NCBI RefSeq assembly: GCF_988243305.1
Contig: NZ_OZ547136.1
Reading direction: 5' to 3' (one strand)
DNA length: 64,000 nt
The position numbers and the translations under genes were made by a program. Below, one piece after another: positions 52,410-52,525 of the stretch (positions within the stretch are counted from its first letter, which is position 1; each line of letters opens with the position of its first letter). The notes beneath the pieces were generated by a model. That model did no database searches, was not told where the DNA came from, and worked only from the letters and a program-made list of their open reading frames with translations.

Positions 52410-52525
52410 CTGCGGTTATATGCCCGATCAAGATCCTGCAAAACGATCGGGACCGCGGATCATAGCCTAAACTGCGCAAGAGATCTTCTGTTTCTCACAG
52501 ATTTTCCCGATTTATCCACAGGACT
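52410..52525. promoter_or_regulatory. dnaA promoter region with DnaA box and GATC cluster
   Basis: Consensus DnaA box TTATCCACA at ~52512..52520; at least 6 GATC sites within ~80 bp (52425..52485). Confidence 0.6.

Follow-up and report, generated by a model that had tools for sequence, protein, structure and literature searches.

Does the dense group of GATC sites beside a DnaA box at positions 52410-52525 represent the dnaA promoter region known from E. coli K-12, and are its GATC sites there as targets of Dam and SeqA or as a by-product of something else? A sequence-only reading of this locus had proposed that the 116-bp interval lies upstream of dnaA and corresponds to the autoregulated, SeqA-sequestered dnaA promoter. 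The window, by which we mean the whole 64-kb stretch of DNA that was analysed, is E. coli chromosome, and it is collinear with MG1655 from nepI to yidZ except for a few inserts. We conclude that the region is almost certainly the canonical regulatory region of E. coli dnaA, on the minus strand. Its location, its identity to K-12, its enrichment in GATC and the conservation of the box and of GATC across the order were observed directly. In contrast, binding by DnaA and by SeqA, the kinetics of remethylation and the precise transcription starts would follow from published studies of the same sequence in K-12.

The GATC cluster lies in the spacer between dnaA and rpmH

In the ORF listing of the window, gyrB, recF, dnaN and dnaA form a run of genes on the minus strand, while rpmH, rnpA, yidD, yidC and mnmE form a run on the plus strand. 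The listed dnaA ORF starts with an in-frame GTG four codons further upstream, and the start at 52302 was chosen after the K-12 annotation; the DnaA protein is identical to that of MG1655 at 467 of 467 residues. Measured from this GTG, the interval 52410-52525 is located 108-223 bp upstream of dnaA, within the spacer to the divergent gene rpmH, and the corresponding K-12 region is annotated likewise. The proposed position upstream of dnaA was therefore correct, with the gene reading from 52302 on the minus strand. The features of the locus are as follows (the dnaA sense is the minus strand):

50899-52302, minus strand: dnaA coding sequence, 467 aa, GTG start at 52302 (ORF listing and K-12 annotation)
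52303-52452, minus strand: dnaA leader from P2, about 150 nt, counted from the probable start site
52426-52448: three GATC sites (52426, 52432 and 52445) in the first ~27 nt of the leader, just past the probable P2 start
52453-52458, minus strand: CCGCGG discriminator ('Travers box'), between the P2 -10 hexamer and +1
52459-52464, minus strand: P2 -10 hexamer TATGAT, overlapped by the GATC at 52458-52461 (sequence and literature)
52482-52487, minus strand: probable P2 -35 hexamer AAGATC, with the GATC at 52482-52485 and a 17-bp spacer (assigned from the spacing)
52491-52499, plus strand: second DnaA-box-like 9-mer, TTTCTCACA, one mismatch to TTWTNCACA
52512-52520, plus strand: DnaA box 'Box 1', exact TTATCCACA, which is TGTGGATAA in the dnaA sense; identical in K-12
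52541-52553, minus strand: candidate P1 -10 hexamer TACACT (52546 to 52541), with the GATC at 52550-52553 immediately upstream
52599-52679, plus strand: small ORF ysdD, 26 codons (K-12 ysdD, 3884026-3884106, mapped via the alignment)
52778-52806, plus strand: putative promoter-like site for rpmH, TTGACT-17-TACAAT (consensus scan, 10/12 matches)
52909-53049, plus strand: rpmH, for ribosomal protein L34; this divergent gene delimits the control region

GATC sites are clustered next to a consensus DnaA box

An exact count placed five GATC sites within 52410-52525, starting at 52426, 52432, 52445, 52458 and 52482 and spanning 60 bp. The sequence-only reading had claimed at least six sites within ~80 bp, which is one too many, as the maximum in any 80-bp window is five; cccGATTtatcc at ~52509, which reads GATT and not GATC, may be the source of the miscount. 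A sixth site at 52550 extends the span to 128 bp, and with further sites at 52627, 52638 and 52648 the cluster comprises nine sites over 226 bp. From one start to the next, the sites are 6, 13, 13, 24, 68, 77, 11 and 10 bp apart, and the cluster thus shows the close spacing that a SeqA-type locus requires.

The whole 64-kb window contains 271 GATC sites, or one per 236 bp, which is a slight over-representation relative to expectation (236 ± 15). Compared with this window average, GATC density is 19.7-fold higher across the 60-bp span, 10.2-fold higher across the flagged interval and 9.4-fold higher across the 226 bp, so the elevated density that had been proposed for this locus holds up on exact counting. 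As a test of chance, the whole window was shuffled 1000 times with dinucleotides preserved, and clusters were counted anywhere in the shuffled sequence. At least five GATC sites within at most 60 bp were found in 4 of the 1000 shuffles, while nine sites within at most 226 bp were found in none, the tightest shuffled span being 245 bp.

The consensus DnaA box that had been reported next to the cluster is indeed present, as an exact TTATCCACA at 52512-52520, and only two exact copies of this sequence exist in the 64-kb window. The other copy (61704-61712) lies inside tnaB by K-12 collinearity and was taken as a scattered chromosomal box; no GATC cluster was noted at this second copy. The 9-mer TTTCTCACA at 52491-52499 can tentatively be equated with the published 'Box 2', and its CTGTG core is found in 94 of the 104 species compared below. 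Speck et al. 1999 is said to describe DnaA Box 2 together with boxes a, b and c.

A simple sigma-70 consensus scan returned no site on the dnaA strand and only the rpmH-side site. P1 and P2 are too far from consensus for such a scan and were therefore placed by literature and spacing; the P2 -35 hexamer, AAGATC, is a poor match to TTGACA. From the positions of the -10 hexamer and the discriminator, and from the three GATC sites downstream of the transcription start, we infer that P2 starts at approximately 52452-52450. P1 was positioned following the literature, which puts it upstream of the box, and Box 1 is accordingly flanked by the P1 -10 candidate (52541-52546) on one side and by the P2 -35 hexamer (52482-52487) on the other. 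GATC is found in the P2 -10 element (TATGATC, 52458-52464), in the P2 -35 element (AAGATC, 52482-52487) and three times just downstream of the probable start.

The promoter region is identical to that of K-12 and nearly invariant in E. coli

Alignment of the flagged 116 bp with the MG1655 dnaA promoter region showed identity at all 116 positions, in agreement with the proposed match to K-12, and 619 of 626 aligned columns are identical across the whole dnaA-rpmH spacer. The seven spacer differences from MG1655 are located at 52385, 52666, 52708, 52722, 52728, 52735 and 52736; one lies in the P2 leader (52385) and six are on the rpmH side, whereas the flagged interval, the GATC sites and the box are free of differences. 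The K-12 dnaA promoter region (dnaA1p/dnaA2p, Box 1/Box 2) carries the same nine GATC sites and the same consensus box, in the same position between dnaA and rpmH and in the same orientation, and it differs from the window element solely outside the flagged interval. Judged by its sequence, the window element is the same element as the K-12 dnaA promoter region, and its class is settled because of this identity. The feature is already known and is unchanged from K-12, and the element offers no novel reading. Its value is that of an annotation landmark only, in that it fixes the position and orientation of dnaA. DnaA and the promoter core each match K-12 at 100% identity, so the strain has a wild-type initiator gene with a wild-type control region, and the dnaA region opens no new question.

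Among the E. coli genomes with a match to the 116-bp interval, 5422 of 5423 showed at least 99% identity. A 751-bp query across the spacer matched 5424 of 5426 complete E. coli genomes, with 100% identity to strain 1190, and was clearly more variable than the 116-bp interval, as 2195 genomes fell in the 95-99% identity band; the features annotated under this longer match are dnaA, ysdD or a hypothetical protein, and rpmH.

Two of the spacer differences touch other features. The substitution at 52385, which is A to T in the dnaA sense and the sole K-12 difference in the P2 leader, is located within the loop formed by a short inverted repeat (ACCCT/AGGGT). The small ORF ysdD, within which the distal trio of GATC sites (52627, 52638 and 52648) falls, differs from its K-12 counterpart by CAT to CGT (His to Arg) at 52666, and this change may be the reason that some genomes carry the annotation 'hypothetical protein' and not YsdD.

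Published work on the identical sequence supports DnaA autoregulation and SeqA sequestration

In K-12, dnaA is transcribed from two promoters, dnaA1p and dnaA2p, and its autoregulation requires a consensus DnaA box located between the two (PMC5835720). The dnaA region has been described as carrying 9 GATC within 225 bp (PMC5835720), which the nine sites in 226 bp counted here match. GATC sites occur in the -10 and -35 elements of dnaA2p, where methylation stimulates transcription ~2-fold, and a CCGCGG discriminator precedes the dnaA2p +1 (PMC5835720; Figure 6 legend for the discriminator). Furthermore, hemimethylation of the dnaA region persists for roughly one fifth of a generation and depends on SeqA, reflecting delayed remethylation and sequestration (PMC5835720); this prolonged hemimethylation in K-12 goes back to Campbell and Kleckner 1990 and Lu et al. 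1994 (via PMC5835720). SeqA binds closely spaced hemimethylated GATC sites, and seqA mutants show a shorter hemimethylated period at dnaA (PMC5835720).

According to a preprint, SeqA inhibits transcription through a set of five GATC sites at P2, of which two overlap the -10 and -35 elements and three lie just past the start (bioRxiv 10.1101/2023.03.30.533363); these five are exactly the five sites within 52410-52525. The three sites at 52426-52448 are those mutated in the 'm3SeqA' promoter of that study, in which fork sensing is lost; in the same study, SeqA repression owed little to the GATC sites of the -10 and -35 elements, and SeqA regulation was dispensable for promoter oscillation (10.1101/2023.03.30.533363). 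Given these two results, how much each single site matters is still debated. Upstream of P2, Box1 and Box2 mediate activation at low and repression at high DnaA-ATP (10.1101/2023.03.30.533363). The identity to K-12 and this literature on the identical sequence thus support the proposal of a DnaA-autoregulated, SeqA-sequestered promoter, by analogy with K-12.

Two related elements are useful for comparison. The oriC of E. coli shares with the dnaA region the presence of DnaA boxes, a ~10-fold excess of GATC and SeqA sequestration after replication (PMC5835720), but oriC has numerous boxes of high and low affinity as well as AT-rich 13-mers and is unwound, whereas the dnaA region has one consensus box, no AT-rich element and a promoter. 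The mioC promoter is likewise repressed by DnaA-ATP via a box cluster in which just one box is consensus (PMC4585315, PMC5835720); it is stated not to be sequestered (PMC5835720), unlike the dnaA region, and is absent from the window.

The DnaA box and GATC number are conserved across Enterobacterales

For comparison across species, species-representative genomes were scanned with a degenerate pattern that covers DnaA residues 6-16 and thus serves as an anchor outside the tested region, yielding 120 Enterobacterales loci. Full dnaA-rpmH spacers were available for 104 sequences, the window itself included. All 104 spacers contain an exact TGTGGATAA in the dnaA sense, in the same orientation and 159-393 bp upstream of the start. 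That the box is invariant in 104/104 indirectly favours the published binding of DnaA to it, with repression or activation of transcription. The median number of GATC sites per spacer is 10, with a median of 8 in the best 230-bp window. When the spacers were anchored on the box, GATCT was found at the -35 position in 101/104 and TATGATC at the -10 position in 99/104. A MAFFT alignment returned as its only strongly conserved blocks CCTGTGGATAAA (the box, 99%), GATCT (99%) and TATGATCC (the -10 element, 98%), while the GGATCGTTTACACT motif at P1 recurs mainly in Enterobacteriaceae loci.

Of all 256 4-mers, GATC ranks first for enrichment in the spacer versus flanking DNA (3.4-fold). The 66 nt past the -10 element are otherwise poorly conserved, and in 103 species they contain 220 GATC sites versus 24 ± 5 expected by shuffles, a ~9-fold excess that makes GATC by far the commonest 4-mer in this segment. 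Site number is maintained although individual positions shift, a pattern that speaks for selection on the amount of GATC and not on its placement. These sequence comparisons point to selection on GATC as such, as opposed to a mere by-product of promoter hexamers. The cross-species count confirms that GATC number, over position, is what is maintained, and it extends long-standing comparisons without altering them.

Two symbionts have few GATC sites. Pantoea sp. Nvir, a stink-bug symbiont, and Ca. Fukatsuia symbiotica both keep the exact DnaA box and have only two GATC sites in the spacer, and both have lost the GATC of the P2 -10 element, which reads TATGATG in the former and TATTATC in the latter. 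The low GATC numbers in these two species may reflect relaxed Dam/SeqA control in reduced genomes.

Alternative explanations for the cluster

One alternative is that the GATC sites are by-products of conserved hexamers (TATGATC, AGATCT) and are not selected as Dam/SeqA targets. Indeed, the two best-conserved sites form part of the -10 and -35 elements, which would be conserved regardless, and these same sites add little to SeqA repression (10.1101/2023.03.30.533363). However, the excess of GATC persists without the -10 and -35 sites, as is evident from the 220 sites versus 24 ± 5 in the poorly conserved 66 nt past the -10 (103 species), and GATC tops the 256 4-mers in spacer enrichment. The distal trio and the P1-proximal site provide four more GATC sites. 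The by-product explanation is thus excluded for most sites, and we consider it very unlikely for the cluster. It is also conceivable, although we regard it as unlikely, that the cluster works mainly via methylation-dependent strength of P2 and that SeqA sequestration is not the main route. This explanation leaves the sites outside the hexamers unexplained, and it sits poorly with the shortened hemimethylation at dnaA in seqA mutants (PMC5835720) and with the loss of fork sensing by the m3SeqA promoter (10.1101/2023.03.30.533363). Methylation-dependent strength and SeqA sequestration are complementary, not exclusive.

The slight window-wide excess of GATC (271 vs 236 ± 15) would be expected to favour chance clustering of a common tetranucleotide, but the frequencies obtained in the shuffles (4/1000 for the tighter group and 0/1000 for all nine sites), the conservation seen across 104 species and the near-invariance of the interval in ~5400 E. 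coli genomes make a chance cluster vanishingly improbable. Similarly, a DnaA box with a GATC cluster is common to oriC, and a 13-mer at 52482-52494 matches GATCTNTTNTTTT with two mismatches, which raises the question of whether the interval is an origin-like or origin-derived element. Such two-mismatch 13-mers are frequent in the window, where 32 are found versus ~21 expected (chance level). Moreover, the GC content of 0.44-0.51 per 100-bp window across 52300-52699 leaves no AT-rich unwinding region, and the nearby boxes consist of one consensus and one single-mismatch copy only. On the K-12 map, and assuming that collinearity extends beyond the window, oriC itself presumably lies ~42 kb beyond the dnaA promoter region and thus outside the window. 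As no box array is found next to an AT-rich 13-mer element, an oriC-type origin was rejected, and an origin-like or origin-derived element is exceedingly improbable here.

A model for the dnaA control region

Nothing in the sequence contradicts the explanation of the locus as the dnaA control region. In this control region, a distal promoter, P1, and a proximal and stronger promoter, P2, would together drive dnaA. When DnaA-ATP is low, Box 1 and Box 2 would activate P2; DnaA-ATP would otherwise nucleate at Box 1 and at Box 2 or weaker neighbouring sites, and the resulting oligomer would spread over P2 and occlude RNA polymerase, leading to self-repression. The nine GATC sites would serve as Dam sites, five of them at P2 (in the -35 and -10 elements and past the start) and four upstream. 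Passage of the replication fork from oriC would leave these sites hemimethylated, and SeqA would then bind those that are closely spaced, keeping both dnaA promoters silent for part of the cell cycle, until remethylation by Dam. Full methylation would in turn bring a modest stimulation of P2. We assume that the host has both Dam and SeqA since the window is E. coli; the genes encoding them lie outside the window.

GATC sites within the dnaA coding sequence

The dnaA coding sequence (50899-52302) contains 15 GATC sites, or one per 94 bp, with the highest density between 51104 and 51650. This number compares with 8.8 ± 2.1 expected, and 15 sites were reached in 6 of 2000 synonymous-codon permutations. 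No GATC excess was observed in dnaN, recF or gyrB of the same window. The dnaA genes of 77 Enterobacterales species together contain 612 GATC sites where 594 are expected, and an order-wide GATC excess in the coding sequence was therefore rejected; this result doubles as a negative control for the spacer. As the excess is found in the E. coli window but not order-wide, it looks lineage-specific. SeqA binding 'within the dnaA gene itself' has been mentioned (10.1101/2023.03.30.533363). It is possible, if rather doubtful, that in the E. coli lineage the SeqA-binding domain has extended from the promoter into the dnaA coding sequence and that, conversely, Dam/SeqA control has been lost in reduced-genome symbionts.

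Inserts and other features of the window

Several segments of the window differ from K-12 in gene content. The region 1-4314 is not collinear with K-12 upstream of nepI and contains several short ORFs, for which no Pfam or PADLOC matches were found. We take the K-12 counterpart of this neighbourhood to follow the selC tRNA, a known island integration site, and 1-4314 may be island DNA.

A 3.4-kb insert that K-12 does not have is located between uhpA and ilvN (15464-18868). It contains two minus-strand ORFs, 15564-17054 (496 aa) and 17309-18616 (435 aa), both annotated 'hypothetical protein' and both without a Pfam or PADLOC match. Of 5426 E. coli genomes, 1110 have some match to this insert and 638 match it with a coverage of 80% or more, and the identities of 80 to 99% are unusually divergent for E. 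coli chromosomal DNA.

Between mnmE and tnaC, a 2.6-kb insert (56766-59388) that is likewise missing from K-12 carries a minus-strand ORF (56914-59097) of 727 aa with a ShET2 enterotoxin N-terminal domain (PF07906, E 3.6e-46). Finally, a small insert relative to K-12 near nepI/yicN (5594-6433) contains two overlapping plus-strand ORFs, 5727-6086 and 6070-6393. One of the pair encodes a RelE-family toxin (PF06296, E 6e-42) and the other an HTH_3 protein whose match to the MqsA antitoxin family is below threshold (26.1 bits versus a cut-off of 30); judged by these domains, the ORF pair looks like a toxin-antitoxin module.
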